Source: a virus | Taxonomy: Duplodnaviria; Heunggongvirae; Uroviricota; Caudoviricetes | Length of the DNA: 64,000 bases | IMG/VR virus record: IMGVR_UViG_2565956713_000001 | Direction: 5' to 3' (one strand) | Shown here: in pieces, positions 10,860 through 63,853 of the stretch | How positions within the stretch are numbered: the stretch's first letter is position 1 | Layout of the letters: every line of letters starts with the position of its first letter | Program-made: the position numbers and the translations under genes | Notes under the pieces: model-generated | Seen by the model: the letters and a program-made list of their open reading frames with translations, nothing else | What the model was told of the DNA's origin: nothing | Databases searched by the model: none

Positions 10860-10876
10860 AATGCTCTAATAAATTT
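10860..10876 (+). promoter_or_regulatory. C1 repressor operator (AATGCTCTAATAAATTT), Op51-like
   Basis: 16/17 match to the asymmetric C1 operator consensus ATTGCTCTAATAAATTT, upstream of the c4-icd-ant module. Confidence 0.7.
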
Positions 10877-11059
10877 GTATTTTTAAGTCGCGAATGCTAT
10901 CTTTTCGCATCATATTGACCTTTTAATCGTTCAGGCTTATAGTTCCGCCGTCGTAGCAAATTCTGCGACCGGGTTTAGCAGCCTGAATGATTGTGCGGAC
11001 AGCCGCAGATATCCGATATTGCGGTATTTTTGTGTCCGTAAAACCGCGTTACGCCCAAA

Positions 11060-11140
11060 TTATGGTGGGGCGTGATGGGGAGGCTTCGGCCTGCTGGTTT
11101 CACAATCGCCAGTCTGCTAACCCCGTCACGTCCTGCCACC
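11060..11140 (+). ncRNA. c4-like antisense repressor RNA (approximate boundaries)
   Basis: ORF-free leader between operator and icd. Short elements (CACAATC, CTGCTAA) are complementary to GTTTAGCAGC / TGATTGTG, which occur twice, the second copy overlapping the icd ribosome-binding site. Confidence 0.3.
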
Positions 11141-11190
11141 TGTTTAGCAGCGGGTAGCAGGTTGTTAAACCTGATTGTGAGGCCGTAACT

Positions 11191-11412
11191 ATGGTTAATG
11201 CCAATCCTTGCGCACGCCCAGAATTCATCTGGCGTTTCTATTCCTGTAAAAAACACCACTATCACTTCGTTATCGCAGCAACTGAAGACGAAGCACGCTC
11301 TCAATTGCCTGATGGCCCCTGCATTTTTACTGCCCGTTTTTCAACTAACTCGCGCAATTCACTTAGTTACTGGAGCCTCCCCTTCTCTGCCGACGTTCAG
11401 GGGGGTTTATGA
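11191..11412 (+). CDS. icd: Icd-like protein (73 aa)
   Basis: 73-aa ORF with GAGG ribosome-binding site; stop overlaps the ant start (ATGA); paralog of the 73-aa ORF at 62488. Confidence 0.6.
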   Translation: MVNANPCARPEFIWRFYSCKKHHYHFVIAATEDEARSQLPDGPCIFTARFSTNSRNSLSYWSLPFSADVQGGL

Positions 11413-12452
11413 AAAAACCTCTCGTCACCCGTAATGACATAGCCGAAGCGATCGCCCTGCATACTGCCTGTATACCGACACGGGAGATCCCCGGCGCAAT
11501 TGCCAACTATTTCATGATAACCAGGCGTTTTTATACCCGAACAGATAAGGCTGTGATCAACAGGCTACTGATAGCCGAGATCAGGGATTATTTGATTGAA
11601 CAAGGACGTCTACGTTACGCAACGGTGGCAGCAGAAATGAGAAAGGAGGCACATAGAATGACCAGTAATAATTTGAATGTTAAAAAACCAGCACCTGTTG
11701 CTTCAGCAACGCCAGCACCAGCCGTGAATGTCATCCCCACCACCGGAGACACAATCGACAGCCTGACACTGTTAAAGATGGTCAATGAAGCGCGTAAGTT
11801 ATGTGGGGAACCAGAGGTTCGGAACAACAAATTCATCGAAAAAATACTCGACGAATTAGAAGGTGAGGACGGTTACACAAAAAGTGCAACCGTGCCGCCA
11901 GGTGGCGGTACGCCTATGGTTGTCATAACCATGACCTACAAACAAGCCCTGCGAGTCGCCGCGCGCGAGTCAAAAGCGGTCCGCCGTTCGCTGATCGACA
12001 AACTGGAAGAATTACAGCAGGCAAACTCCCCTACCCCATCGATCCCCCAAACATTACCAGAAGCCCTACGCCTGGCTGCCGAGTTGGCAGAACAGAAAAT
12101 GCATCTGGAACAACAGCTGGTGGCCGCAGCACCTAAAGTCGATTTTGCCGACCGGGTATCAGTGGCTAAAGGGATCCTGATTGGGAATTTTGCAAAGGTC
12201 GTTGGACTTAAGCAAAACGCCCTTTTCTCATGGTTGCGCCAGAACGGCATTCTCATGGCTTTTGGTGCGCGCAAAAACGTACCGCGCCAGCAGTACATTA
12301 ACGCCGGGTATTTCACGGTGAAAGAAGTGGTGCTGGATGATGAAAATGGCTATCAGATACGGCTGACGCCACAATTAACGGGTAAAGGCCAGCAGTGGTT
12401 AACTCGCAAGCTACTTGATGCTGGTTTGTTAAAACCAGTAGCAATAGGTTAA
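11409..12452 (+). CDS. ant: antirepressor Ant
   Basis: 347 aa; C-terminal KilAC antirepressor domain (DFADRVSVAKGILIGNFAKVVGL...GKGQQWL). Confidence 0.7.
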   Translation: MKKPLVTRNDIAEAIALHTACIPTREIPGAIANYFMITRRFYTRTDKAVINRLLIAEIRDYLIEQGRLRYATVAAEMRKEAHRMTSNNLNVKKPAPVASATPAPAVNVIPTTGDTIDSLTLLKMVNEARKLCGEPEVRNNKFIEKILDELEGEDGYTKSATVPPGGGTPMVVITMTYKQALRVAARESKAVRRSLIDKLEELQQANSPTPSIPQTLPEALRLAAELAEQKMHLEQQLVAAAPKVDFADRVSVAKGILIGNFAKVVGLKQNALFSWLRQNGILMAFGARKNVPRQQYINAGYFTVKEVVLDDENGYQIRLTPQLTGKGQQWLTRKLLDAGLLKPVAIG

Positions 12453-12464
12453 CAAAAGAAAAAA

Positions 12465-12490
12465 ACCTGCCAGCAAACTGGCAGGTTTCT
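12465..12490 (+). terminator. intrinsic terminator after ant
   Basis: Hairpin CCTGCCAGCAAACTGGCAGG followed by TTTCT. Confidence 0.55.
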
Positions 12491-12530
12491 GAGCAGATCG
12501 TCCAACCCGATCTGGATCGAGTCAGAAAAA

Positions 12531-12547
12531 TTTGCTCTAATAAATTT
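12531..12547 (+). promoter_or_regulatory. C1 repressor operator (TTTGCTCTAATAAATTT), Op53-like
   Basis: 16/17 consensus match just upstream of kilA. Confidence 0.75.
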
Positions 12548-12616
12548 CGTTTTCTAAGTGCAAAGAATCACCATTTCGAGCTGGTGATTGAAGGTTGATG
12601 CAAATTTGGAGAAAAA

Positions 12617-13417
12617 ATGCAACAAACATTCAATGCGGATATGAATATATCAAACCTTCATCAAAATGTCGATCCTTCAACCACTCTGCCCGTTATTTGT
12701 GGTGTTGAAATTACGACCGACCGCGCTGGCCGTTACAACCTTAATGCTCTACACAGAGCGAGCGGACTCGGTGCCCATAAAGCGCCAGCTCAATGGCTAA
12801 GAACGCTGTCAGCCAAACAGCTCATCGAAGAGCTTGAAAAAGAAACTATGCAGAATTGCATAGTTTCGTTCGAAGGCCGTGGCGGCGGCACTTTTGCCCA
12901 TGAATTGCTCGCAGTGGAGTACGCAGGCTGGATTTCTCCCGCGTTTCGGCTGAAGGTAAACCAGACATTTATCGACTATCGAGCCGGAAGATTACAACCT
13001 GCTATTCCGAAGAGCCTCCCAGAAGCTCTCCGTTTGGCTGCTGACCTGGCAGAGCAAAAGCAACGGCTGGAGCAAAAAATGCTGATGGATGCACCTAAAG
13101 TCGAATTCGCCGAACGCGTTGCTACCGCCAGCGGGGTTCTAATCGGCAACTATGCCAAAGTGCTCGGCCTGGGCCAAAACTATCTCTTCACCTGGTTGCG
13201 TGATAACGGAATTCTGATCGCAACCGGTGAACGCAGGAACGTCCCCAAACAAGAATACATATCCCGTGGGTATTTCACCCTTAAAGAAACCGTGATCGAT
13301 ACAAGCAATGGAAGCAGGATTTCTTTCACGACTCGTATAACCGGCAAAGGTCAGCAGTGGCTGATGAAGCGATTGCTTGATGCTGGTGTGCTGGTACCTG
13401 TCGCGGCAACGCGCTAA
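12617..13417 (+). CDS. kilA: KilA (KilA-N domain plus KilAC domain)
   Basis: 266 aa, the length of P1 KilA; C-terminus homologous to both Ant proteins; directly upstream of repL. Confidence 0.75.
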   Translation: MQQTFNADMNISNLHQNVDPSTTLPVICGVEITTDRAGRYNLNALHRASGLGAHKAPAQWLRTLSAKQLIEELEKETMQNCIVSFEGRGGGTFAHELLAVEYAGWISPAFRLKVNQTFIDYRAGRLQPAIPKSLPEALRLAADLAEQKQRLEQKMLMDAPKVEFAERVATASGVLIGNYAKVLGLGQNYLFTWLRDNGILIATGERRNVPKQEYISRGYFTLKETVIDTSNGSRISFTTRITGKGQQWLMKRLLDAGVLVPVAATR

Positions 13418-13446
13418 CAGACGTAGTAAGAACCACCAGCATTGTA

Positions 13447-14292
13447 ATGCTGGCTAAAGTCACTTTCCTGAGCTGTATAACGATGAGCGATTTTACTTTT
13501 TCTGGCTATGAATTGGCCTTCTTTGTAACACACTCCGGTCTATCCCGTAGCGCCGGGCATATCCTGTCGCAATGTGCAAATCTCGCGGCAACAACCAGTG
13601 AATACTTCATTCACAAGCCCCACCGCCTGATCGCGGCAGAAACTGGTTATAGCCAATCAACCGTCGTTCGTGCATTCCGTGAAGCTGTAAACAAAGGAAT
13701 TCTATCTGTAGAGATTGTTATCGGCGATCACCGTGAACGTCGCGCTAACCTGTACCGGTTTACACCATCCTTTTTGGCCTTCGCACAACAAGCCAAAAAT
13801 GCGCTGATTGAAAGCAAATTAAAGATCTCTTCAGCGGCAACCAAGGTTAAAGCTGTTCTCGCTAAGACATTGGCTTTATTTAATTTTTTATCCACACCCC
13901 CATGTCAAAATGATACCCCCTCCCCATGTCAGGATGACGTGGCAATAAAGAATAAGAAGTCACAAGTTAAAAAAACAAAAAGATCAGTTTCCGGCGGTGC
14001 CGGAACGATCAGACTCAAAAAATTGACTTCATGGATCGCTGAGACAAAAGCAAAGGCTGACAATCTGCGGTTATCCAAAAAACGCGCACAAAAACATGAG
14101 TTCAAGCAGAAAGTAGAGGCGGCAGCGCGGAAATATGCTTACCTGAAGAACAAGCGTTCTCCTGATATTGGCGGGGTATCAAACTTCGATAATCTGCCGC
14201 ATTGCATGACGGTAAACGAAGCTCTTAATGCGGTTTTAGCCAAAAATAAAGATAACGAACAATGGGGTATACCGGCAGGATTCAGAGGGTGA
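13447..14292 (+). CDS. repL: lytic replication protein RepL
   Basis: 281 aa, the length of P1 RepL, following kilA under the Op53-like operator; an alternative start at 13483 is possible. Confidence 0.6.
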   Translation: MLAKVTFLSCITMSDFTFSGYELAFFVTHSGLSRSAGHILSQCANLAATTSEYFIHKPHRLIAAETGYSQSTVVRAFREAVNKGILSVEIVIGDHRERRANLYRFTPSFLAFAQQAKNALIESKLKISSAATKVKAVLAKTLALFNFLSTPPCQNDTPSPCQDDVAIKNKKSQVKKTKRSVSGGAGTIRLKKLTSWIAETKAKADNLRLSKKRAQKHEFKQKVEAAARKYAYLKNKRSPDIGGVSNFDNLPHCMTVNEALNAVLAKNKDNEQWGIPAGFRG

Positions 14293-14588
14293 TAGATTGC
14301 TCTAATCTGGAGTCACCTGGCGTTTTCAGTTTGAGGTCGGAGATGCAATCTGATTTTTTACAGTTAGCGATCGCTTTTGCAGGATATGTTTGTATTGGCT
14401 TCTGTGTATACATGATCAGCCGAAAAATGCTTGTCGATATCGACCGCAAAGAACAAGCAGAGGAGATCTTAGTATGGATTTTCTTTGGCGCGGTCTGGCC
14501 ATTAGGGATCATGTTTGCTGCAACATTTCTTCTGATGTGGATATTCACCCTTCCTGGTGATTTCTATAGAAAAAAAGCCAGACATTGA
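14262..14588 (+). CDS. small membrane protein (putative; likely start near 14343)
   Basis: Two predicted transmembrane helices. Confidence 0.3.
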   Translation: MGYTGRIQRVIDCSNLESPGVFSLRSEMQSDFLQLAIAFAGYVCIGFCVYMISRKMLVDIDRKEQAEEILVWIFFGAVWPLGIMFAATFLLMWIFTLPGDFYRKKARH

Positions 14589-14711
14589 TACAATCGTTGC
14601 GGGTGCTTGAGGCTATCTGCTTCAGGCATTACCCGAAAAGCAGATAGAAGAAAGCCCCAGATAACATCACGCGTCCTGCAAGACGCTTAACATTAATCTG
14701 AGGCCATATCT

Positions 14712-14918
14712 ATGCTTAGCATACGTAGATTAGCCTCTTACCGACCAAAAGGTCAAGGAGAAGCAGGCTATGAAGCAGCAAAAAGCGATGTTAATCGCTC
14801 TGATCGTCATCTGTTTAACCGTCATTGTGACGGCACTGGTAACGAGGAAAGACCTCTGCGAGGTACGAATCCGAACCGGCCAGACGGAGGTCACTGTCTT
14901 CACAGCCTACGAATCTGA
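14712..14918 (+). CDS. mok: Mok-like overlapping reading frame of the hok locus
   Basis: 68-aa ORF that overlaps the hok frame out of phase and starts 58 nt upstream, as in hok/mok/sok loci. Confidence 0.4.
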   Translation: MLSIRRLASYRPKGQGEAGYEAAKSDVNRSDRHLFNRHCDGTGNEERPLRGTNPNRPDGGHCLHSLRI

Positions 14919-14925
14919 AAGGTAA
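14770..14925 (+). CDS. hok: Hok/Gef-family membrane toxin (type I toxin-antitoxin)
   Basis: 51-aa ORF MKQQKAMLIALIVICLTVIVTALVTRKDLCEVRIRTGQTEVTVFTAYESER, near-identical to HokD/HokC as I recall them; below the ORF-track size cutoff. Confidence 0.8.
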   Translation: MKQQKAMLIALIVICLTVIVTALVTRKDLCEVRIRTGQTEVTVFTAYESER

Positions 14926-15004
14926 GAGACCTGGCGGGGAGAGATCTCCGCCACTCTTCGTGTGTCAGGTATCCTCAATGCACCCTTTCCTCTCCAAATA
15001 AAAA

Positions 15005-15024
15005 AGCTCCCGAAGGAGCTTTAA
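15005..15024. terminator. bidirectional intrinsic terminator
   Basis: Hairpin AGCTCCCGAAGGAGCT flanked by A-run and T-run, between hok (+) and the convergent structural operon (-). Confidence 0.5.
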
Positions 15025-15041
15025 AATACAAGGGATGACTC

Positions 15042-15551
15042 TTAATCCCACTCAATCCAGTTGTAGACGATACGAAGTGACGGGCGCACAGCGGCAGTCA
15101 CATCTTCGGTACTAAAGTCGATTGCATCACTGTAGATTTTGCAGTCCAACATTTCAATTGTTGTAGCAGCTTTTGTCACAGCGTTAACCCCGGAAGATTT
15201 GGATTCAGGGGTCGCAGCCATCGTGATATCAACATAGTCCTTCGCCGCAATGCGATCCTTGATGAACTGAAGAATATCGCCTTCGATAGTCTCCACGCAC
15301 TGGACCTGGATTTCCCCAGAGTTTCGAATTGGTCCGTGCTGGTTGAACTTCACACCATTCGGACCATAGTCCTCCACATCCTCGCGGGTCATTTCAGGAA
15401 TTTGCGACGTGCGAACCAGTACGCTGATATCTTCATGGCCTGCAAAAGTGAGCTGGAATTCAGAAGATACCAGTCGTTCGCCTTTGGCCGCGTTGGCAGT
15501 ATAGCGGCCCTTAATAAATTTACGGTTTCCCTTAGTGTTATTGTGCCCCAT
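15042..15551 (-). CDS. phage structural protein (tail-tube-sized)
   Basis: 169-aa ORF, last gene of the minus-strand capsid/sheath operon. Confidence 0.3.
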   Translation of the reverse strand: MGHNNTKGNRKFIKGRYTANAAKGERLVSSEFQLTFAGHEDISVLVRTSQIPEMTREDVEDYGPNGVKFNQHGPIRNSGEIQVQCVETIEGDILQFIKDRIAAKDYVDITMAATPESKSSGVNAVTKAATTIEMLDCKIYSDAIDFSTEDVTAAVRPSLRIVYNWIEWD

Positions 15552-46979: not shown

Positions 46980-47157
46980 TGATTTTTAAAACAGAGAAAG
47001 TGAAAATAAAAACATGCCGTAAGGCGCGGCATGTATCCAATCAATCACAGGAGCTGAAAATATGAACACGGCATTCAAAATCATTATGGCCGCGATCTAT
47101 TTCTGGCTGTTCTCTATCACTTTTGGCGGCATCGTCGCGCATGGGTAAGGGGGATGC

Positions 47158-47883
47158 ATGAAAGGCGAAGTGAAAGAGCGCGGCATGATTTTCAACGATG
47201 AGATGGTCCGAGCCATCCTCGAAGGAAGGAAAACGCAGACGCGGCGGATAATGAAAAATCAGCCTGCGGAAGTTGGTCCAGAAGCACCAGTGATGGTTAG
47301 GGAAATTGGTGCAGGTTTTCAGTGGTACGGGGCTGATGGTGTAAGCAGTGTTTTCAATTGCCCCTTTGGTATCGTCGGCGATCGAATTTGGGTTCGTGAA
47401 ACATGGGCGATATTAGGCAATGAAGATGGTTGCAGTGTGGACTGGAACGACAACCTTTGTCGTGGCGATGAGAAGAACGCAGCAAGGATTTATCGGGCCA
47501 GTTGTGAGCAAAAGCCTGGTGATTACGGTTTATGGTCGATACCCGATGATGCCGACTGGAAACCTCACACTGTGAATGAAAAGTTTGATGGTGGGTGGCG
47601 TCCATCAATTCACATGCCGCGATGGGCATCACGCATCCTGTTGGAAATTACCAACGTGCGCGTTGAGCGGTTGAACGATATCAGCGAATGCGATGCAAGG
47701 GATGAGGGCGTTCCGCCTGCTGGAAGTTTGCTTCCTGATCACCCGGGAACATTCCTTACTCCCAAGGGGGATTTCGCAATGGCCAAGGTTGCGTTCCAGC
47801 GCCTGTGGGAATCCATCTACGGCGAAGAAAGCTGGAGTGCTAATCCCTGGGTTTGGGTAATCGAGTTTGAGCGTATTCAGTAG
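47158..47883 (+). CDS. ASCH-like domain protein (tentative)
   Basis: 241 aa; N-terminal MVRAILEGRKTQTRR resembles the ASCH motif. Confidence 0.35.
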   Translation: MKGEVKERGMIFNDEMVRAILEGRKTQTRRIMKNQPAEVGPEAPVMVREIGAGFQWYGADGVSSVFNCPFGIVGDRIWVRETWAILGNEDGCSVDWNDNLCRGDEKNAARIYRASCEQKPGDYGLWSIPDDADWKPHTVNEKFDGGWRPSIHMPRWASRILLEITNVRVERLNDISECDARDEGVPPAGSLLPDHPGTFLTPKGDFAMAKVAFQRLWESIYGEESWSANPWVWVIEFERIQ

Positions 47884-47892
47884 GGCGAGCGT

Positions 47893-48114
47893 ATGCAATC
47901 AGTTATTTGTGAGGAAGTCGGCCTGAATAAAGCATCCCCAGCAGAGTTAAGAGCAAGTCTCGAAATGGCGCATAGCCTTGCTCAAATTGGTGTCAGGTTT
48001 GTACCAATTCCAGTTGAAACAGATGAAGAATTTCACAGGTTAGCGGCATCGGCAGCACAAAAGCTGGAAATCATGGCAGCGAAAGTAGAGAAAGCTGAAG
48101 GAGCGACAAAATGA
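47893..48114 (+). CDS. hypothetical small protein
   Basis: 73-aa ORF, tightly packed with neighbours. Confidence 0.3.
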   Translation: MQSVICEEVGLNKASPAELRASLEMAHSLAQIGVRFVPIPVETDEEFHRLAASAAQKLEIMAAKVEKAEGATK

Positions 48115-48326
48115 GCAAGCCAACCGACGAAGAAATAGTTCGGGTGTTGGAAGAACACGGGCGCTGTATGACTTACGTCGTGACCAACTGGCTTAGGGAT
48201 AAATATCGCACACTCAAAACGGCATACGTTTTGCGTCGTCTAAAGAAACTGGAGTTCGACGGGAAAGTAAAGCGCGTTAACAGTTCTTATATAAGACAAA
48301 TTTGCTGGGAGGCATCCAGTGAGTAA
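48111..48326 (+). CDS. hypothetical small protein
   Basis: 71-aa ORF overlapping the previous stop. Confidence 0.3.
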   Translation: MSKPTDEEIVRVLEEHGRCMTYVVTNWLRDKYRTLKTAYVLRRLKKLEFDGKVKRVNSSYIRQICWEASSE

Positions 48327-48963
48327 CCGTTTTTACATGATGTGCTTGCGTGAAACTGTGGGTAATAACGCCTCATTCCATTGCCATAACGGCAATGGTT
48401 ACAGTTCTGATATCGATCGCGCTCATGTTTACACGCAGGAAGAAGCCCAAAAAGCCTGGAATTGTGGTCGAGATATCGATCAGCCTGTTTGCGCTGATAG
48501 CGTGGATGCAATGGCTGTGTGGCACGTTGATTGCCAGTACATCCCTACAGAAAGCCTGATTGAGTCAGATTGCACTGCGTATGTGGCCTACAAAAAAGGT
48601 AGCTGGAACGGCAACGATGTTTACTGGCTTCAACACGGTGGATTGCCAACAGATGACTTCAGTAAAGCGACCATCTTTAGCGTCGCCAACAAAAACGAAC
48701 CAGGAATAGTTTGGTTGCCATTTTCCATTGCTGATGCAGCAAAGCGTCGGACGTTCAATATCAATAACTTTAACCGCAGAACAATGGTTCAGGGCGCAGG
48801 TTTGGTCATGCCTGACTGGTTGGAAGAGCAGAACAGAAGAAAGAAGTCGCGAAGCGGGAAGGTGCGTTGGAATTGTCCGCATTGCGGAAAAATAACCTGG
48901 CAGTACAGCCCATATGATTTTGAAGGCTGTAGTGATTACAACTGTGAAGGATGGCGAGAATGA
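48319..48963 (+). CDS. Cys-rich hypothetical protein
   Basis: 214 aa; C-terminal CPHCG...C..YNCEGW cluster. Confidence 0.35.
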   Translation: MSNRFYMMCLRETVGNNASFHCHNGNGYSSDIDRAHVYTQEEAQKAWNCGRDIDQPVCADSVDAMAVWHVDCQYIPTESLIESDCTAYVAYKKGSWNGNDVYWLQHGGLPTDDFSKATIFSVANKNEPGIVWLPFSIADAAKRRTFNINNFNRRTMVQGAGLVMPDWLEEQNRRKKSRSGKVRWNCPHCGKITWQYSPYDFEGCSDYNCEGWRE

Positions 48964-49658
48964 CAATTAACTATCAGGTACTGCGTGAGGCGGCAGAAAA
49001 GGCAACACCAGACGAATGGGTCGCATTTATTTCGACGGATACTGGTACTTATGCGGTGCACACGCCCGGTGATGAACGATGTGAAGACGTTATCAAATGG
49101 ACCGGCTTTGATGGACAGAAAAATGCAGAGAACAACGCTCGTCATGTTGCCGCGTTCAACCCAAAGGTTGCACTGGAGCTGCTTGGTGAAATTAAGTGCC
49201 TGGAGGACACAAAAATTGATGCTATGTGTCGAATTGCAGAGCTTGAGACTAATCTCGCGGCGCTGGTGGCAGAGAACGCCGGGCTGAAACACGCAATGGC
49301 CGTAACTCTTGAGCATGTGTCGGTCACGGATGCAGGGCAGACCGGAGTTGCTGCAATGATTATCAACGATGCCCTGCACCACAGCGAAACTCCAGCTACC
49401 GATGCTTTTCTGGCTGAAATTCGTGCGGAAGCACGCAACGAGGGGATTAACTATACCGCCAGCCGTCTTGCTGCTGCGTTCAATCACGGATTTATCAATA
49501 AGTCTTTGCGTGAAGTTTTCGACGTTACACGCATGATTTTGTCAGCGAAAGAAGAGTTGGCTAATGAAGCGCATCCGATTGATGGCCTGTCTGGTGAATA
49601 TGCGGAGAAATCCCTTGAAGAATGGGCGGAACAGATTCGCAAAGGAAGCAGCCAGTGA
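48951..49658 (+). CDS. Ea22-like protein
   Basis: 235 aa; N-terminal INYQVLREAAEKATP and a coiled coil; paralogous to 49942 and 50652. Confidence 0.45.
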   Translation: MARMTINYQVLREAAEKATPDEWVAFISTDTGTYAVHTPGDERCEDVIKWTGFDGQKNAENNARHVAAFNPKVALELLGEIKCLEDTKIDAMCRIAELETNLAALVAENAGLKHAMAVTLEHVSVTDAGQTGVAAMIINDALHHSETPATDAFLAEIRAEARNEGINYTASRLAAAFNHGFINKSLREVFDVTRMILSAKEELANEAHPIDGLSGEYAEKSLEEWAEQIRKGSSQ

Positions 49659-49945
49659 ATATCGACACGACAATAACGATCGATACGCTCCTAAATACCG
49701 GTCTGGCACTTCTCGGTTGGCTTTACATCATGTCCCGTACATGGCGATGGCTGGGTTCCATTTTCCTAAAACAGTGGAAAAAACGGCGCAAACAGGAACT
49801 ACGCCAGAAGGCATTAGAAGCGTTCTATGACGCATTTGAGCTTAGCCGCATTGAACCAGGTACAACAGCCAGGATAGCGACAAAAGGCGACCTGATGATA
49901 GTGATGTTCCGACAGGAGAGAGCAGAGAAAGGGGAATCAGCATGA
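49655..49945 (+). CDS. small membrane protein
   Basis: GTG start overlapping the upstream stop; one transmembrane helix. Confidence 0.3.
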   Translation: MNIDTTITIDTLLNTGLALLGWLYIMSRTWRWLGSIFLKQWKKRRKQELRQKALEAFYDAFELSRIEPGTTARIATKGDLMIVMFRQERAEKGESA

Positions 49946-50655
49946 AATTTTCCAAATTTTCTGAGTTGGTGAATCGTATTTTGTCCAACAACCACAGCCA
50001 TCGTCGCGATATGGATGTAACAATCGTTGTTCATTCGCCTGGCAGCATTGGTTCAACACCTTCAGTTGAGGTTCAGTCAATTCACGCTGGTTTTGATTGG
50101 GATTCCGGGAAAGTGCTTATTTTCCCATCACAGCCACTGACCACGCTAACACCAGAACAGATTACTGATATCACTGATAGTGTGCGCAAAGGTCAGTCTT
50201 GGCACGCATATCAGGAATACAAGAAGCATCAAGAGCAGTTGGAAAAATTGTCGATTGAACTGGAGGCCGCAAAACAGCGCATTGCAGAGCTGGATGGTAA
50301 TCGCACGGCGCTGGCAGTGGAGAATGCCTCAATGAAGCTGTTTATCAGGGGCTGTTGCTACGTGTTTGATGGCCAGCAGGATGAAATATCTGATGCGTAT
50401 ATCTGCGCAACAGACGGAGGGATGCCGCAAATTCCAGCCACCGACGCTTTCCTGGCTGAAGTTCGGGCGCAGGGGGTGGATGCTGCTATAGAAGCTGCAA
50501 AAAATCTGGTGGCCCAAGAATATGAGTATAAGGATTTCAAAGCGGCGCAGAGTGATTGCTGTATGCACCCTGGTTCAGACCTGGTAGGGAAGGTTGAAAT
50601 GACTGAGTGGTTAGTTGACTTTGCTGCCCAGCTTCGCAAAGGAGGCAACCAGTGA
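49942..50655 (+). CDS. Ea22-like protein (paralog)
   Basis: 237 aa; shares the coiled-coil core and PATDAFLAEVRA segment with 48951. Confidence 0.4.
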   Translation: MKFSKFSELVNRILSNNHSHRRDMDVTIVVHSPGSIGSTPSVEVQSIHAGFDWDSGKVLIFPSQPLTTLTPEQITDITDSVRKGQSWHAYQEYKKHQEQLEKLSIELEAAKQRIAELDGNRTALAVENASMKLFIRGCCYVFDGQQDEISDAYICATDGGMPQIPATDAFLAEVRAQGVDAAIEAAKNLVAQEYEYKDFKAAQSDCCMHPGSDLVGKVEMTEWLVDFAAQLRKGGNQ

Positions 50656-51140
50656 GCGAAATTAATTACCAGGCACTGCGTGAGGCGGCGGAACGTGCAA
50701 TTCCAGCAATGGAACGCCTGTTAATGTTGCCAGTTGATGATGATTTGTTAAGTGAACAGGAACTTAAAGATTACGGTGTGGATATTGATGCGCTCAACGC
50801 CTTCAAATTTCTGGCCGGACCAGAAACCGTGCTGGCACTACTGGATGAACGGGAAAGAAACCAGCAATACATCAAATCCCGCGACCAGGAGAACGAGGAT
50901 ATTGCGCTAACGGTAGGGAAGTTGCGCGTTGAGCTTGAGGCAGAAAAACAGCGGGCAAAGGATCTGTTTATGGAAAATGCTCGGCTTAAGTCAGGTATAG
51001 CCGGTCTGATACACCTCGGTATTCGATATGCAGATGTTGATGTCATGAAAATTGCTGGAGATGCCCAGCTTTCTACCCCATGCACTGACAGCATCATAAA
51101 CAGCATTGCAACAGGCATTCGCATCAACGGAGGTGAGTAG
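50652..51140 (+). CDS. Ea22-like protein (short paralog)
   Basis: GTG start; N-terminal EINYQALREAAERA. Confidence 0.4.
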   Translation: MSEINYQALREAAERAIPAMERLLMLPVDDDLLSEQELKDYGVDIDALNAFKFLAGPETVLALLDERERNQQYIKSRDQENEDIALTVGKLRVELEAEKQRAKDLFMENARLKSGIAGLIHLGIRYADVDVMKIAGDAQLSTPCTDSIINSIATGIRINGGE

Positions 51141-51312
51141 TGCGTGTGGCATGTATTGGCTTGTTACCGTACCCGACTCGTTTTTGGGCTTCTGCGCTAA
51201 TTGCAAAGCCACAGGTCCTGATGGCTGACAACATCACCCCAGCACCAAAGCGCCGCCATACCGGTATTGCAGCGGCACGACGAGCAGCAAAGAGACGCAG
51301 GAGAGCAAAGCG

Positions 51313-51489
51313 ATGAAAAACCGTAAGGCAAAACGACTTTTTTTACAGCGACCTGTGCGTGTGGTGGAGCTGGTTATTAGCAACCATAAGATAGCGGTAC
51401 TCCATCCATTTGGTCAGGTGGCTTTTGCCGCAAAGCGTAAGCCTACTGCGTCACAGAACAGGCGGAAGAAAGGGTACGCAGTAAGATGA
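51313..51489 (+). CDS. small basic protein (tandem duplicate 1)
   Basis: 58-aa ORF starting MKNRKAK, below the ORF-track cutoff; stop overlaps the next start. Confidence 0.25.
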   Translation: MKNRKAKRLFLQRPVRVVELVISNHKIAVLHPFGQVAFAAKRKPTASQNRRKKGYAVR

Positions 51490-51674
51490 AAAACCGTAAA
51501 GCAAAGATTCTGTTAGTTCGTAGAAACGCTCCTGGCGTCTGGCAGTGGGTGAGACTCAGCAACCGACGGATGGGGTTGATGAAATATTACGGGATGATGG
51601 ATTGTGTTTTTTGCAAAAAGCCCAGCGCGGCGCAAAACCGCTGGAAAAACCACTTGCGCACTAAAGGAGAGTGA
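51486..51674 (+). CDS. small basic protein (tandem duplicate 2)
   Basis: 62-aa ORF also starting MKNRKAK. Confidence 0.3.
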   Translation: MKNRKAKILLVRRNAPGVWQWVRLSNRRMGLMKYYGMMDCVFCKKPSAAQNRWKNHLRTKGE

Positions 51675-51675
51675 T

Positions 51676-51897
51676 ATGGCTAACTCATTACTTGAAACCT
51701 GTAACAACTGGCAGATTCAGAGGGCGGAGATTTTATCTCGAAATCCAGATATGGCAATGACAATTGATAACCTGGATACGCTAATTGAACGAACCGTGCG
51801 TTCTGCAATTGATATCGCACATCGAGTGGATTGGGATTTCAGAGAAGCGGAGCGACTTGCTAAAGAGCAGGCGAAAGCTGCGGGCAAAGGAGAGTGA
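51676..51897 (+). CDS. hypothetical small protein
   Basis: Internal Met with strong AAAGGAGAG ribosome-binding site within ORF 51604..51897. Confidence 0.35.
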   Translation: MANSLLETCNNWQIQRAEILSRNPDMAMTIDNLDTLIERTVRSAIDIAHRVDWDFREAERLAKEQAKAAGKGE

Positions 51898-52118
51898 TGT
51901 GCCAACATTATTCAGAAAAGAATATCCGCGAAGAAGCCGAATAACAGAATTTCTGTTTCTCATTCTGTTTATCGTGTTGATGATACCGATATCCCCGTTA
52001 ATTCTGGTATGGGGAATCGGGAAAATAATTGAGCCAGTTATTGAATTGTATAACGACGTGGTATGGGCGTCGTTCAACACATTGCACAACAAAATCAACC
52101 CATATAAGGAAAGCTGAT

Positions 52119-52355
52119 ATGGCAACTTTGACAAAAGAAGAGCGTTTTACCAAAAAACAAATCGCCGAGGCAAAAATCCTCGATAACAACGGAACCTACT
52201 TTATCAACGGCTCCATCCTTCCTGTTTATATCAATGAAGATGGAGACACTTACCTTATTGAAGAGTACGAAAAAGGCGAGCCGAGCGAACACCTCATTAA
52301 AGATTTGTTCGCGGATGGCGTTCTTGTTGCGGTTAATCCAATCGGATACAACTGA
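52119..52355 (+). CDS. hypothetical small protein
   Basis: Internal Met with AAGGAAA ribosome-binding site within ORF 52029..52355. Confidence 0.35.
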   Translation: MATLTKEERFTKKQIAEAKILDNNGTYFINGSILPVYINEDGDTYLIEEYEKGEPSEHLIKDLFADGVLVAVNPIGYN

Positions 52356-52365
52356 GGCATAATTT

Positions 52366-53046
52366 ATGACCACTTTAACCGACAAAGAACTGATTAAAGA
52401 AATCAAAGAGCGTATCAGCAGCCTGGACGTGCGAGACAATATTGAGCGACGGTCGTATGAAATTGCTCTGGCATCGCTGGAAGCAGAACCAATTGCTTAT
52501 ATTTTCAAACATCCGGCCGGGAAATTATTCTGGGCTTTAACGGATGAAAGCAATAAAGAGCAAGTGGACGTTATTCCTGTTTATGCTGCCGCGCTTGCGT
52601 CGGTTGTGCCGGATAATGCATCAGAGCCTCTTGCTTATGCTTACAAAGAGCTTACGCCTGAGATTATGCGCAACCATTTAGCTGTATTCGAGCGATATGG
52701 AATAGCCCCAAACGATAGCTCTACCACAATTCAGGCACTGCGAATCGCGCTGGATGGCATAGAGCGGAGCGACGCCATGCTTCATGGTGCCAAACCTGTA
52801 AGCCAGACTTACAAGTTGAACAAGCTGTCGGGCAACTATCCGGTAATTCCGGATAGTTGGATAAGCTGTAGTGAGCGAATGCCCCCTCAAGATGATTGGA
52901 TTTTAATTTATTCAAAGCACGGCGAGTATATGGCAGGACAGGTACAAGGGGAATACGTGGAGTTGAGCGACGGCACTTTATCGTGGTTAGGGAACGCCTT
53001 GTTCTGGATGCCGCTACCGGAACCGCCGCAGGAGGTGAATCAATGA
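52366..53046 (+). CDS. DUF551-like prophage protein
   Basis: 226 aa; C-terminal WISCSERMPP...WMPLPEPP; shares GNYP.IPDS motif with ORF 54197. Confidence 0.4.
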   Translation: MTTLTDKELIKEIKERISSLDVRDNIERRSYEIALASLEAEPIAYIFKHPAGKLFWALTDESNKEQVDVIPVYAAALASVVPDNASEPLAYAYKELTPEIMRNHLAVFERYGIAPNDSSTTIQALRIALDGIERSDAMLHGAKPVSQTYKLNKLSGNYPVIPDSWISCSERMPPQDDWILIYSKHGEYMAGQVQGEYVELSDGTLSWLGNALFWMPLPEPPQEVNQ

Positions 53047-53110
53047 GCTGGCCTGAAGCATTCACCACGGTAGGAATTGTGATGGCGGCAGCACTGGGTT
53101 TGTATTCAAT

Positions 53111-53362
53111 TTGTCGCTGGTGGTAACGATGGGAAAAATAACTTTTGTAGTCGAATTTGAGGATGGCAAAGAGCCACCTGTTAGCGCCAATCTTGATGTT
53201 GCTGGTGGCAGGCTTGTTTCGGTTCTATTTGGTGACTACCGAGATGACTTCTTCCAACCAGAAGAAGTTGATGTAGTGCGAGAGGCATTAAACGAGTTAA
53301 GTGTTGATAACGATGATGCTCATGCGGAAATCATCCAAAAAATGGAACTGCTAACTCACTAA
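53111..53362 (+). CDS. hypothetical small protein
   Basis: 83-aa acidic ORF. Confidence 0.3.
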   Translation: MSLVVTMGKITFVVEFEDGKEPPVSANLDVAGGRLVSVLFGDYRDDFFQPEEVDVVREALNELSVDNDDAHAEIIQKMELLTH

Positions 53363-53540
53363 ATTATCAATTATGGTGCTATCACCTACGACACCGAGAG
53401 AAAATTTATAATGTCAAAAGTAAATGTTTTGATTTTTTCAGCAATTGTTGGCTTTGGTTTTACTGCCGGAGTGCAGATTTATATTACGTGGGAAAAAATC
53501 ATCAACTACGCATGGAGTTGTTTTATTAAGTGAGGTAAGT

Positions 53541-53834
53541 ATGTGGAGAGGTAATAGTCATGGCAAAAGCCAGATGATACTTACCGAATATCAGTTTGAC
53601 CATAAAACCAATAAATCACGTTCAGTATATTTGCTTCGGCACAATAGCCGCGTAAGGAATACCGTGCTGGAGCAAAATCTGACTGTTGAAATAGATAATT
53701 ACGGGGGCTTCAAGCCAACAATTTCGCTTGATGATTTTCCTCGTGGTTTAAGCGAAAGAGAAGCAATGCTGAAATTAGCAGAATGGCTACAAAGATTAAG
53801 CATTGCTATTGAAGATAACTGGTCTGAACCTTAA
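53541..53834 (+). CDS. hypothetical protein
   Basis: Internal Met with GAGGT ribosome-binding site within ORF 53445..53834. Confidence 0.3.
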   Translation: MWRGNSHGKSQMILTEYQFDHKTNKSRSVYLLRHNSRVRNTVLEQNLTVEIDNYGGFKPTISLDDFPRGLSEREAMLKLAEWLQRLSIAIEDNWSEP

Positions 53835-53840
53835 ATTTAT

Positions 53841-54215
53841 ATGATGACACTAAAACATTTTCTTGACCGCCCATTATGGGCGGCAGCCGCAGGCTATGAC
53901 TTTAATTATATGGATTGCATGTCTTATACCGCCAATGCATACGACTATTCCTTCAGTCTGCTGCTTAATTCTTTAAGAATATTGCCGCAAACAGAAGTTG
54001 GAGAGCTTCATTTATGGCTATTGGGCTTTATCGCGGCTGGAGTTGGTATTGCTGTATGGCCTTTTATTTTCTGGCTGGTGGCTGTTGTAGTGTGGTTTAA
54101 GTGCAAGACGTACCGGAGAAAGTATTTCTTAGGTGATGGAATGACTGATATTGCCAAAATGAACATTGAAAAATGGACTAAGGAATGTGAAAAGAAATGG
54201 CGCAAAAAGAAATGA
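53841..54215 (+). CDS. membrane protein
   Basis: 124 aa with a long hydrophobic segment. Confidence 0.3.
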   Translation: MMTLKHFLDRPLWAAAAGYDFNYMDCMSYTANAYDYSFSLLLNSLRILPQTEVGELHLWLLGFIAAGVGIAVWPFIFWLVAVVVWFKCKTYRRKYFLGDGMTDIAKMNIEKWTKECEKKWRKKK

Positions 54216-55129
54216 CCAGAATCACTGAAGAGCGTATATCAGAGATTATTTCCCGTATCGAAATGTATGGTCACGGTGCTGGATATACGGCAGATGAAGT
54301 ATTGGCACTTGCCCAAATGGCTTTGGCGGCTTGCAAAGATGATAAAAAAATGAAGTTTATCGACTTGTTAGTGAAGGAACTGCCTAAGTGCGGCGGGTGG
54401 CCTGATGGAATGAGTTATTGTTACCTACCCAGTGTCAATTTAATGGCACCATGCGCGACTTTTGCTTTTGGCTCAGACCACAAAAAAGACACTTTCTTTG
54501 GGCGCAATTTTTGTTGTGAGATTGAGCTTCCAATTGGTGACCTTGATAGCGATGAATACCAGTCAGTTGTCACTCGCGAACAATACGAATCAGCTCTCAT
54601 AGCGTCGCAGAAAGTCGAGTTCAATGGTGATGAACTTGAAAGTAAGACTTACAGGTTGGATTTTGGGCAATGGCTGGAACAGCAACGCGGGAAAATCGAT
54701 GTGGACTGTGGTTGTGTGTCCACTGAAACATTCATGCACTGGCTGCGGGTAGCTTACGAGGCTGGCAACTATCCGGATATTCCGGATAGTTCGGTGCCAG
54801 CACCAGGAAAGGGCGTCACCGGTGAACGTATCCGAATTAAGCCGCATGTTTATCGCGAACTGGTTAACCGTCTCCACGATACAGCGATCAAGTGTGCTGG
54901 CACCCAGCAATTACGAGAAAGAATTAGCCGTGTTTTGGGCGACGTTATTACACCAGATCATCATAAACAAGCCGAGAAAAGTGGCCTGGAAAGGTGTCAC
55001 CTTGAGGCGGCATTAAACATTAAGCCGGGGCATACGCTTGGCATTATTGATGCACTATTGGTTCATAAGATGGCCAGGGCTTTATTGCCGCTGGTGGATG
55101 CTGGCGATACAAGCGAGGGTGAAGTATGA
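54197..55129 (+). CDS. hypothetical protein with GNYPDIPDS motif
   Basis: 310-aa ORF. Confidence 0.35.
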   Translation: MAQKEMTRITEERISEIISRIEMYGHGAGYTADEVLALAQMALAACKDDKKMKFIDLLVKELPKCGGWPDGMSYCYLPSVNLMAPCATFAFGSDHKKDTFFGRNFCCEIELPIGDLDSDEYQSVVTREQYESALIASQKVEFNGDELESKTYRLDFGQWLEQQRGKIDVDCGCVSTETFMHWLRVAYEAGNYPDIPDSSVPAPGKGVTGERIRIKPHVYRELVNRLHDTAIKCAGTQQLRERISRVLGDVITPDHHKQAEKSGLERCHLEAALNIKPGHTLGIIDALLVHKMARALLPLVDAGDTSEGEV

Positions 55130-55488
55130 GAGTTGCAGATCACATCAAACACCTTGAAAGAATTATCGAAAACGGTGAACTCTTAAGAGATCAGATGAGA
55201 CGCACGGCAGAAGTCAGAGAGGCGATAATCCGCAGTCAGGCTGGTAAATTAAAGCAATTATCAGAGATTAACGCGCTATACAAGAACAGACGTAACCGGG
55301 CGGCGCTGCGGCTTCAGAAAGCACGTAATGAAATTAAATTGGTGGAGGCAAAACTGAAAAAACAGATTCAGCGTTACGATCAGCAAGATGCTTTTTATGC
55401 CGCCATCAAGGCGGCTGCTAATGAAATAGGCATCTGGAAGTTGCTGGTGGAGAAAGCAAAGACGAAGTTAAATGCCAACGAAAGCTGA
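55126..55488 (+). CDS. coiled-coil protein
   Basis: 120-aa basic helical ORF overlapping the previous stop. Confidence 0.3.
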   Translation: MRVADHIKHLERIIENGELLRDQMRRTAEVREAIIRSQAGKLKQLSEINALYKNRRNRAALRLQKARNEIKLVEAKLKKQIQRYDQQDAFYAAIKAAANEIGIWKLLVEKAKTKLNANES

Positions 55489-56149
55489 ACTACAGGTACC
55501 CACCAGCACATACAGAAAATGATTGTTTCCACATCAAGGAGATTTTAATGTTTCACTGAACATTAAGTAAGCCAGTGCATAATTCCATTTTTTACTGACC
55601 TTAAAAGCAAAATCAAAACGATGATGAGGATGATCGCCAGAATCTGGCTAATAACAGGCGCATCTAAAAATGCACTCAGGAACTGAAAAAAAGCAGTCAT
55701 TAAGGTGGTTCCTTGTCAAATGTAAAGGAGCACTTGCTCACGTTGACGTAGAAACCCAACCCCTATATAGTTGGATTCGGTGAAAGAAAGTCGTTAACGT
55801 GAGCTTACGGCACATGTTTTCGGAACAACATCAGGGAACGGCTAATTCCTTGATGCGGATGGGGTCTGTAATGCAGACCCTATCTATTAACGTCATGATT
55901 GCATCTCAAATTTTCTCCTTATCTTCATTAATCAAAATTCATTTCATTTGTGAAACATCACAATATTTAGAAAATGGCCCTCTTGCAAGTGCATAACTTT
56001 GTGGATAAATCAGGAAGAAAAAAGTTGATTCTGCGCACGGCAAGGCAGATAAGCTGTGCACAAAAATCAATGGGAAAAGAAAAAAAATTAAAAGTTACTT
56101 TGCTGGTTAAATAATAGTCGTTACGCAATTGTTCTGGATGGGATTTGAT

Positions 56150-56401
56150 ATGCACGATTGGAATATTGCAGCTAAAAGTCAGGAAGAACGGGATAAGGTT
56201 AACGTTGATCTGGCTGCCAGCGGTGTGGCGTACAAAGAGCGATTGAACATACCTGTCATAGCTGAACAGGTAGCCCGCGAGCAACCAGAGAATCTGCGCA
56301 CCTATTTCATGGAACGGTTACGGCACTATCGGCAGTTAAGCCTCCAGTTGCCAAAAGGGAGCGATCCGGTGTATCAGAACGAGGATGCACCAAAAAAATA
56401 A
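56150..56401 (+). CDS. hot: homolog of DNA polymerase III theta subunit (Hot)
   Basis: [36 protein letters not shown] aligns with E. coli HolE as I recall it; start chosen at the Met best matching theta's length. Confidence 0.6.
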
Positions 56402-56486
56402 CGGCAAGATGGGGGAGAAATGTGATTAGCCCCCAGCGTGGCGCGCCTACAAACCCCGCTTTCACAAACTATGCCTTTTCAATGTA

Positions 56487-56506
56487 TACTGTATGAATAA
56501 ACAGTA
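56487..56506 (+). promoter_or_regulatory. LexA box (SOS operator)
   Basis: TACTGTATGAATAAACAGTA fits CTGT-N8-ACAG, ~20 bp upstream of humD. Confidence 0.7.
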
Positions 56507-56524
56507 TCATTGAGGTAAAACGCT

Positions 56525-56914
56525 ATGGGCTTCCCTTCTCCTGCGGCGGATTATGTTGAAAGCCGAATTTCTCTTGATCAGCAGATAATTAGACATCCTT
56601 CAGCGACCTACTTCATGCGGGCAGCTGATAGCCATCACCGTGAGGGAATATTGCAGGGTGCTTTGCTGGTGGTTGATTCCTCGCTTACTCCGGTTGATGG
56701 TTCTCTGCTTGTGTGCGCTATGGAGGGTGAATATCGCATAAAGAGATACAGGAAGTATCCGCGCCAGCACCTGGAGGATTTAAGCACCGGGAAGAAAGAG
56801 GCGTTACCAGTAGATGACGATGGATACACGGGCAGTAATGCTGTTTTTGGTGTGATCACTCATGTCATCAATGATGCCCGAAGTGGGGAATTTGATGATT
56901 GTCCGGTTATTTAA
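56525..56914 (+). CDS. humD: UmuD'-like protein (HumD)
   Basis: 129 aa; GFPSPAADYVE...HPSATYF...KRYRKYP, a UmuD homolog lacking the N-terminal arm. Confidence 0.85.
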   Translation: MGFPSPAADYVESRISLDQQIIRHPSATYFMRAADSHHREGILQGALLVVDSSLTPVDGSLLVCAMEGEYRIKRYRKYPRQHLEDLSTGKKEALPVDDDGYTGSNAVFGVITHVINDARSGEFDDCPVI

Positions 56915-62148: not shown

Positions 62149-62151
62149 AAT

Positions 62152-62168
62152 CTTGCTCTAATAAATTG
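62152..62168 (+). promoter_or_regulatory. C1 repressor operator (CTTGCTCTAATAAATTG)
   Basis: 15/17 consensus match 4 bp after the pacB stop, heading the second immI-like module. Confidence 0.65.
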
Positions 62169-62487
62169 TGTTTTTTGACTGCCGATGTTACATTGAACCT
62201 GACCTCTTGCGCCTTGAGGCATTTTCGGTTTATGCTTATCAGGCACCTCATTAAAACGGGTGCCGGGATTGGCCTCCCGCTTAAGTCTAAGGCGATACAG
62301 ACGCCGCTCGCGTCTTTTTTTTGTATCGGCGTACACGCACACCTCTACAATGGTGGGCTGTATGGGGCTACCTTCGGGTAGGCTGGTTACCTTGGACGCC
62401 AGTAAGGCCAACTCCGTACAGTCCACCGCCAGCAAGATTGGTCTCTTCTGCGGTGGTTACATACCAACGTCTAAGGAGGCTGCCAAT

Positions 62488-62709
62488 ATGGCTACTATCC
62501 CTACCCCAACTCATCCTGTATTTATCTGGCGCTTTTACTCCTGCCAAAAACGTCACTATCACTTCGTTATTGCACCGACAGAAGATGAGGCCCGCTCTCA
62601 GCTTCCTGACGCCCCATGTATTTTCTCTGCCCGTTTTTCCACTGATTCACGCAATTCTCTCAGTTACTGGTGCCTCCCTGTTAACGCTTCTGCTCAGGAG
62701 GGACTATGA
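62488..62709 (+). CDS. Icd-like protein, second copy (73 aa)
   Basis: Internal Met with AAGGAGG ribosome-binding site inside ORF 62260..62709; ~70% identical to the 11191 Icd-like protein; stop overlaps the ant-like start. Confidence 0.55.
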   Translation: MATIPTPTHPVFIWRFYSCQKRHYHFVIAPTEDEARSQLPDAPCIFSARFSTDSRNSLSYWCLPVNASAQEGL

Positions 62710-63821: not shown

Positions 63822-63829
63822 TGGAAGAA

Positions 63830-63852
63830 TGCCCGGTTGATGCCGGGCATAA
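63830..63852. terminator. bidirectional intrinsic terminator
   Basis: Hairpin TGCCCGG-ttgatg-CCGGGCA with T-rich flanks on both strands, between the ant-like gene and convergent c1. Confidence 0.55.
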
Positions 63853-63853
63853 T

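Follow-up and report, generated by a model that had tools for sequence, protein, structure and literature searches.

Why do two antirepressor genes of one phage, lying some 51 kb apart, end in such similar DNA? The question is raised by a 64,000-nucleotide stretch of a virus of the Caudoviricetes (IMG/VR record IMGVR_UViG_2565956713_000001; the whole of the stretch analysed is called here the window), which, judging from its sequence, is a P1-like phage-plasmid (Punavirus). Its first antirepressor gene, ant, sits in the canonical immI–kilA–repL region, upstream of kilA–repL, and the second lies between pacB and c1. The original prediction, made from the letters of the window, took the 3′ parts of these genes, which encode the KilAC domain, for near-identical direct repeats that had arisen by recent gene conversion or domain shuffling and that could split the plasmid by homologous recombination. 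We find that the second ant stands at the end of a second, complete immI-type cassette, which that prediction had missed, and that the repeat is an ordinary domain module shared by paralogues, in which past exchange has left clear traces. In the explanation that we consider probable, the KilAC module is common to two paralogous ant genes, each ending its own immI-type operon, and its patchiness is the footprint of repeated allele exchange.

The cassette between pacB and c1

The second cassette (cassette 2) takes the place of the 24-bp spacer that separates the convergent stop codons of pacB and c1 in P1. The 60–64 kb region of the window finds its best matches, at 96–98% identity, in phages RCS47, vB_EcoM-673R5 (673R5) and JL22, while P1, P7 and SJ46 align there only over pacAB and c1, the insert between being absent. 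In plasmid pD72-mcr1, otherwise a 96–99% identical relative, the cassette is 99.9% identical to that of the window. Its features are as follows:

62149–63853, plus strand: accessory immI-type cassette, 1,705 bp (junction alignment with P1)
62152–62168, plus strand: C1-operator-like site CTTGCTCTAATAAATTG, two mismatches, directly 3′ of the pacB stop codon and 194 nt upstream of C4-2
62243–62320, plus strand: isrK-like leader (Rfam RF01394, 60.8 bits against a gathering score of 50)
62268–62276 and 62284–62297, plus strand: target copies a1 and b1 of the leader (duplex prediction)
62299–62315, plus strand: terminator-like hairpin of the leader, followed by eight T (terminator scan)
62346–62433, plus strand: C4-2, a second C4 antisense RNA (Rfam RF01695, 75.9 bits against a gathering score of 45, full-length model match)
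62437–62445 and 62467–62481, plus strand: downstream C4 targets a2 and b2, spanning 62437–62481 (duplex prediction)
62488–62709, plus strand: icd-like open reading frame (ORF), 73 aa, whose stop codon overlaps the ant start (ATGA, 62706–62709); NCBIfam NF033153, phage_ICD_like
62706–63821, plus strand: second-locus ant, 371 aa, with an 83-aa N-terminal segment, an ORF6N domain and a KilAC domain
63829–63850, plus strand: hairpin at the end of the cassette, after ant (terminator scan)

The corresponding features of the canonical region (cassette 1) are:

10860–11190, plus strand: canonical immI control region (Rfam, duplex prediction and operator scan)
10860–10876, plus strand: C1 operator, 198 nt before C4-1
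10937–10989, plus strand: a1b1 leader of the c4-a1b1 family (Rfam)
11058–11143, plus strand: C4-1, the C4 RNA of cassette 1 (Rfam), with loops identical to those of P7
11154–11162 and 11171–11184, plus strand: targets a2 and b2 (duplex prediction)
11409–12452, plus strand: canonical ant1, 347 aa (immI region 96–98% identical to P1 and P7)

The operator-like site of cassette 2 matches the C1 operator consensus ATTGCTCTAATAAATTT at 15 of 17 positions, and its distance to C4 is similar to that in cassette 1 (194 versus 198 nt); eight matches to this consensus occur in the window, against 0.02 expected. C4-2 has a predicted fold like that of C4-1, a long outer stem with two inner hairpins, and exposes the loops b′ UUACCUUGGACG and a′ AAGGCCAAC. 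Downstream, b2 overlies the Shine–Dalgarno sequence TAAGGAGG of the icd-like ORF. The loops of C4-1 are the same as in P7 (b′ UUUCACAAU, a′ UCUGCUAAC); P1 differs in both, its targets being changed to match.

Both proteins of the cassette have counterparts in the canonical region. The icd-like product shows 71% amino acid identity to canonical Icd (11191–11412), and each of the two Ants matches phrog_63 (‘anti-repressor Ant’) from end to end. Canonical ant1 contains an internal in-frame start, that of ant2, at 11658, preceded by AAGGAGG, the combination that defines Ant2 in P1. This is kept in the second-locus ant, where an in-frame ATG at 62955 has AAGGAGG 7 nt upstream, as at 11658, and would yield a short form of 288 aa. 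The KilAC domain (PF03374, cut-off 25.3 bits) scores 106.7 bits in canonical Ant1, 109.5 in the second-locus Ant and 112.2 in KilA, and is 92% identical between the proteins of the two Ants. The second-locus Ant has in addition an ORF6N domain (PF10543, residues 116–201, 68 bits versus a gathering score of 27.8), which Pfam does not find in canonical Ant1, where KilAC is the only recognisable domain. The full-length phrog_63 match and the likeness of the KilAC domains suggest by homology that the second-locus Ant would bind and inactivate C1.

On these sequence grounds, cassette 2 appears to possess the defining features of P1 immI in all but genomic position. The order and the logic are the same as in P1 and P7: a candidate C1 operator, a1/b1, C4 (RF01695), a2/b2 with the icd ribosome-binding site lying under b2, an icd of 73 aa, the ATGA overlap, the internal ant start with AAGGAGG, and the KilAC C-terminus. 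Cassette 2 differs from P1/P7 immI in lying between pacB and c1, instead of in the stretch from the sim region to kilA–repL; in having an isrK-family leader with a terminator hairpin of its own, not one of the c4-a1b1 family; in its unrelated loops and targets; in the ORF6N central domain of its Ant; and in being a second copy within one genome.

The mechanism of P1 immI, reportedly established by Citron, Heinrich and Schuster, consists of occlusion of a ribosome-binding site together with coupling to ant. Our other statements on P1 immI draw in part on record annotations, PMC6906374 and PMC8546580. By analogy, the a′ and b′ loops of C4-2 would pair with a2 and b2 on their own transcript, this pairing would occlude the icd ribosome-binding site, and translational coupling would then block Ant synthesis in the lysogen.

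Part of the cassette also resembles the isrK–orf45–anrP locus of the Salmonella prophage Gifsy-1, which likewise has an isrK-family leader with a terminator, an AUGA-coupled small ORF and an antirepressor-like gene. In Gifsy-1, IsrK ends at a Rho-independent terminator with read-through into the small ORF, and acts in trans to activate translation by remodelling of the mRNA (PMC4825925). No C4 is described for that locus, whereas in cassette 2 the leader, which itself holds copies of the C4 targets, is followed by a C4 before the small ORF begins. Within P1 itself, KilA is like the second-locus Ant in joining an N-terminal KilA-N/ORF6N-like domain to a C-terminal KilAC, but kilA differs from the ant genes in its DNA (60–63% identity) and in belonging to the C1-controlled kilA–repL operon rather than being under C4 control.

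Two side observations concern the same elements. Further matches to the C1 operator consensus, at 27486, 30762/30773, 41196 and 46963 (with an overlapping inverted pair at 30762–30789), are presumably the known P1 operators. At 62260–62709, the C4 RNA gene and its targets are overlapped by an ORF annotated as ‘ash family protein’ (Pfam Phage_ASH), and short coding sequences of this name occur in related plasmids (for example L005, 1528–1647); what is translated here is probably a conserved RNA gene, which would make the protein annotation an artefact.

C4 loops and their targets

The loops and targets of C4-2 are unrelated to those of cassette 1, P1 and P7, which would give the phage two immunity specificities that are independent of one another and presumably both act on C1. 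A textbook case of RNA-encoded immunity is the heteroimmunity of P1 and P7, which a few c4 RNA bases determine. The role of such small C4 differences is described in PMC6906374 and in the annotation of the P7 record.

To describe the diversity of these determinants, we assigned loops by sequence pattern and judged cross-reactivity by comparing homologous target sites directly. Summed RNAduplex energies were tried as a cross-reactivity matrix and rejected for poor discrimination, the short loops meeting spurious partners in targets of 110 nt. Reference phages and plasmids supplied 13 cassettes, which show six a′/b′ combinations. The immI of 673R5 adds a seventh b′ (CAUUCGU; L098, 359–492), a variant absent from P1 and P7, and its b2 is the matching ACGAAUG. 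An independent IMG/VR set, for which the Icd2 protein served as query and gave 79 loci, contained 73 C4 genes in nine combinations, built from six b′ and five a′ variants. The reference and IMG/VR sets together hold at least 10 a′/b′ combinations. In the IMG/VR set, a further loop, b′ UUUCAUGUA, was seen at eight loci in the context classed as ‘other’, together with a P1-type or P7-type a′; P1 and P7 do not have it.

Four of the combinations cross b′ CCUUUGAC or CCUUUUGC with a′ GUCUCAA or GUUCCAA in leaders that are otherwise nearly identical. These leaders differ at b2 (GUCAAAGG or GCAAAAGG) and at a2 (UUGAGAC or UUGGAAC), in each case complementing their own loops exactly. Such exact complementarity across variants amounts to compensatory co-variation of an intermolecular pairing, in which a′ and b′ reassort. 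Five a′/b′ combinations occur at the pacB–c1 locus by itself, and each of the four dual-cassette phages examined (the window, RCS47, JL22 and 673R5) is of one specificity at immI and of another at pacB–c1.

The shared KilAC tract

Self-comparison of the window returned a direct-repeat family of three copies, 12102–12401 (taken as reference), 63471–63770 (87%) and 13064–13363 (63%). The repeated features are:

12042–12449, plus strand: repeat copy 1, the KilAC (ANT) coding 3′ part of canonical ant1/ant2, with a high-identity core at 12114–12400 (repeat search; PF03374, E = 1e-30)
63390–63818, plus strand: repeat copy 2, the KilAC coding 3′ part of the second-locus ant (repeat search; PF03374, E = 1.4e-31)
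13004–13414, plus strand: third and much more diverged KilAC copy, in kilA (60–63% nucleotide and 64–66% amino acid identity to either ant)
11218–11381, plus strand: further repeat, in icd, 80% identical to 62515–62678 (window self-comparison)

Compared base by base, 12113–12440 and 63482–63809 are 87.2% identical over 328 nt, ungapped, at an offset of 51,369 bp. Upstream, an extension of 71 nt (12042–12112 versus 63390–63460) is 80% identical; a 21-nt indel, a seven-codon insertion in copy 2, lies between it and the main tract. The identity is unevenly distributed: 96–97% at 12114–12211, 69–74% at 12212–12286, 92–95% at 12287–12400, then about 69%, decaying to the stop codon. The first patch holds 98 nt with three mismatches (12114–12211), including 80 nt with a single one (12132–12211), and the longest exact runs between the two tracts are 47, 39, 32 and 29 nt. 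The 3′ end of P1 ant matches this segment far above chance (blastn E about 1e-95). The direct orientation, the spacing of about 51 kb and the runs of more than 80 nt with one to three differences are thus as first described; the near-identity over some 400 bp is not, as 12060–12450, held in one register, is 78.5% identical and patchy, with no exact run longer than 47 nt.

The remainder of the two genes is also less simply arranged than a divergence of their N-terminal two-thirds. The central domains are indeed unrelated (22% amino acid identity), but the first 83 codons are homologous (64% in amino acids, 67% in nucleotides), and upstream of ant the icd genes are 73–80% identical in DNA. The icd repeat and the ant N-terminal region therefore provide 5′ flanking homology between both cassettes. 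The kilA C-terminus is, as had been stated, far more distant.

Patches of this kind might be imagined to arise with no recombination at all, through strong purifying selection on the KilAC domain of old paralogues. Non-synonymous divergence (pN) along the tract is indeed low (0–0.12), and the domain is 92% identical in protein. Synonymous divergence (pS), however, is 0.15 at 12114–12211, 0.84 at 12212–12286, 0.25 at 12287–12400 and 0.84 at 12401–12449, and, with codon columns shuffled, the length of the longest low-difference run had p = 0.0009 and the density of the tightest cluster of differences p = 0.0024. Moreover, kilA, which is under similar constraint, shows a flat 51–67% identity across the same patches and none of high identity. 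Since pS is so uneven and kilA lacks the pattern, protein constraint alone is insufficient to explain the patches. As natural alleles also switch cleanly between types, an origin by selection only is very improbable.

These alleles were typed at the 95 sites that distinguish the copies of the window (type 1, canonical ant; type 2, second-locus ant). At the immI locus, pFORC64.1 is of type 2 up to 12113 and of type 1 from 12128, and pO26_EH031_1 is of type 2 up to 12353 and of type 1 from 12363, after which it is 100% identical to the kilA flank of the window. At the second locus, pLH85-a-A bears a type-1 tract at 12128–12218, a conversion tract of 91–107 nt, within 86 type-2 sites. In the IMG/VR set, about 45 block patterns were counted in 72 tracts, for example type 1 at 12083–12345 followed by type 2.

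Central-domain swaps were found at both loci: in 44 plasmids kilA is directly preceded by an ant of the ORF6N type, and in three an ant1-like central domain adjoins c1. Cassette 2 type sequence occurs at the canonical immI position in other plasmids, and the Icd-like protein WP_000201261.1 is encoded at the pacB–c1 locus in pD72-mcr1 and at the canonical immI locus in pO26_EH031_1. The Ant of pFORC64.1 (469 aa; L005, 1884–3293) carries, before its KilAC domain, an ORF6N domain as well as the central region of P1 Ant1, and is apparently a fusion that arose by recombination.

Domain shuffling or gene conversion among antirepressors, as originally proposed, thus appears to be supported as an older process at the level of the population; what finds no support is that it was recent in this genome. 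The P1-type ant of P1, P7 and many plasmids that lack cassette 2 is 85.9–87.3% identical to the second-locus tract, just as within the window, and the ant1 tract of the window is 97% identical to that of P1 and no closer to type 2. In the four dual-cassette phages, the two tracts of each genome are 84–86% identical, with maximal exact runs of 32–47 nt. Homogenisation within a genome is therefore not seen, the tracts of dual-cassette phages being no closer than unlinked ant genes.

The same figures bear on the proposal that the two tracts were recently homogenised by conversion in this genome and that, as direct repeats, they split the plasmid into two circles. Several points speak for it. The repeats are direct, their exact runs (47, 39, 32 and 29 nt) exceed the minimum for RecA-dependent recombination in Escherichia coli, which Shen and Huang are said to have placed in 1986 at about 25 nt, and crossovers within the tract have clearly occurred in nature. 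P1 also encodes Ref, an enhancer of RecA-dependent recombination. Against this, the tracts are 87% identical, with a pS of 0.15–0.25 even in the best patches, and ant genes from elements without cassette 2 match equally well. A divergence of 13% strongly depresses recombination under active mismatch repair. The long uninterrupted near-identity typical of deletion-prone repeats is absent, with 87% identity over 328 nt and a longest exact run of 47 nt.

We searched PLSDB for both predicted junctions, one joining the ant1 central part to the second-locus KilAC and c1, the other joining the second-locus ant 5′ part to the ant1 KilAC and kilA. No deletion circle was found among about 700 P1-like plasmids (PLSDB records, with no read-level data). 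The junction queries were covered to at least 80% in three and 44 records, respectively, all natural mosaic alleles, 92–96% identical and not exact hybrids; these came from plasmids with ordinary flanking context, of 90–250 kb save one of 35 kb. This one, pF16EC0211-4, in which the second-locus ant 5′ part is followed by KilAC and kilA, was considered as a predicted deletion circle and rejected, its upstream sequence being the normal immI neighbourhood and not pacB. Similarly, phi456, whose match (99%) is confined to the 3′ part of the second-locus ant, was rejected as a hybrid of the two ant genes, since it carries an IS1-associated deletion from pdcB into the second-locus ant.

Mapping to pD72-mcr1 places ParB/ParA (about 20.6–22.8 kb) and RepA (about 24.1–25.0 kb) between the repeats, likewise repL, the dnaB-like helicase and phd/doc, and c1 outside. 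A crossover would therefore yield a 51.4-kb replicon lacking the C1 repressor and a c1 circle lacking a replicon, neither of which we would expect to persist. Rare splitting events are possible; as an account of these repeats, however, recent homogenisation with splitting of the plasmid is very improbable, and the exchange of alleles between paralogous ant genes remains our preferred reading.

Distribution, setting and meaning

Of 814 matching PLSDB plasmids, 281 carry at least 80% of cassette 2 in one place; as much of it occurs in 264 of 5,426 complete E. coli genomes, where it nearly always sits on a plasmid. About 700 PLSDB plasmids match the flanking c1 or kilA sequence, and approximately 35–40% of P1-like plasmids hold the cassette. 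Of nine cassettes examined at the second locus, seven have an intact ant, which measures 371 aa in six and 351 aa in pLH85-a-A.

Such a cassette could nonetheless be a decaying, non-functional duplicate, or a passenger remnant with no role in immunity. P1, P7 and SJ46 manage without it, ant is frameshifted in 673R5 and pTX376, and it is truncated by IS1 in phi456. On the other hand, the second-locus ant is mostly intact and under purifying selection, the C4 loops co-vary exactly with four target sites over many variants, the Shine–Dalgarno sequence, ATGA coupling and internal start are conserved, and more than a third of P1-like plasmids are carriers. We regard a remnant as improbable.

Some observations nevertheless count against two operons that are both active and that owe their patchy tract to exchange. 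The frameshifts of 673R5 and pTX376 imply that cassette 2 is dispensable in at least some lineages; its operator-like match carries two mismatches; a promoter scan found no strong sigma-70 consensus promoter; and crude duplex energies part cognate from non-cognate pairs only modestly. As for the mosaic alleles, many two-site ‘type-1’ patches may reflect shared polymorphism, not conversion, and the crossovers at the immI locus could come from co-infecting phages recombining at that same locus, the second one being uninvolved.

Part of this organization has been noticed before. A descriptive note in print records the ant insertion between pacB and c1 (PMC6906374), and Venturini et al. report an icd–ant homologue in the res-mod region of pSvP1, with no regulatory analysis. 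Our literature searches returned no description of a second C4, or of C4 specificity diversity, in P1-like elements beyond the descriptive note. Of more interest than the repeat, and outside the coordinates of the original prediction, is the second complete and seemingly orthogonal C4/icd/ant cassette beside c1, one of a diverse and reassorting set of RNA specificities in P1-like phage-plasmids. In several IMG/VR loci (L024, L091 and L095, from IMGVR_UViG_2698536372_000019; L029/L089; L065/L090; L075/L092), two or three icd-like cassettes lie within about 6–17 kb, in a context that is neither immI nor pacB–c1. Together with the copy in the res-mod region of pSvP1, these clusters indicate that more insertion loci exist.

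Elsewhere, the window is not collinear throughout with pD72-mcr1, from which it differs in a 9.75-kb slot (47153–56904) upstream of phd/doc. Here the window has two Ead/Ea22-like genes, a DUF551 protein and a humD-type region, and pD72-mcr1 a type I restriction–modification system (hsdRSM); in P1-like plasmids this slot appears to vary in its accessory or defence content. The two Ead/Ea22-like genes are paralogues, since a 47-nt repeat (48965–49011 and 50660–50706, 81%) opens each of them. In pD72-mcr1, the closest plasmid relative, mcr-1.1 lies beside ISApl1 (L009, 1–2206, corresponding to pD72-mcr1 12474–15269), just upstream of the position equivalent to the start of the window, which begins about 3.7 kb further on.

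At that start, a 77-nt direct repeat (3–79 and 135–211, 81% identical, at a spacing of 132 nt) aligns to the inside of an annotated phage tail protein gene of pD72-mcr1. Downstream of repL, a sok antitoxin RNA (14601–14775; Rfam, 112 bits) accompanies a hokD-type toxin gene, and this hok/sok module is likewise present in P1-like relatives. Three tRNA genes occur as in P1 (31447–31519, 31525–31597 and 33601–33673; Asn, Thr and Ile according to the annotation of a related plasmid).

Mosaic regulatory genes of temperate phages recombine at conserved linker segments in Botstein's modular theory of phage evolution. The same is seen here, where the conserved icd/ant N-terminus and KilAC flank variable modules and crossovers fall in conserved segments. 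The exchange that we propose would use the KilAC module on the 3′ side and the icd/ant N-terminal region on the 5′ side as flanking homology, central domains, C4 specificity modules and whole cassettes being swapped between phages and, possibly, between both loci. What goes beyond the modular theory is that the exchangeable unit resides at two loci of one replicon and includes an RNA–RNA determinant with reassorting a′ and b′.

More tentatively, and as a proposal that could well fail, P1-like phage-plasmids may use a combinatorial multi-locus immunity code, in which each carries one or two (possibly three) C4/icd/ant cassettes with orthogonal, reassorting a′/b′ specificities. If so, a prophage would be immune only to relatives whose every Ant cassette is silenced by the resident C4, and a cassette beside c1 would be both an offensive and a defensive upgrade in an arms race of related plasmid prophages. 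The KilAC and icd segments would then be the handles by which recombination carries specificity modules from phage to phage and from locus to locus. The system would also constitute a natural set of orthogonal antisense-RNA/target pairs.

In any case, a large share of natural P1-like plasmids, including carriers of mcr-1 and of extended-spectrum β-lactamases (ESBL), has a second cassette of unrelated specificity. If these cassettes work as their sequences suggest, they would help decide which P1-like elements coexist, exclude or induce one another, and could thereby have a bearing on the spread of resistance-carrying phage-plasmids.

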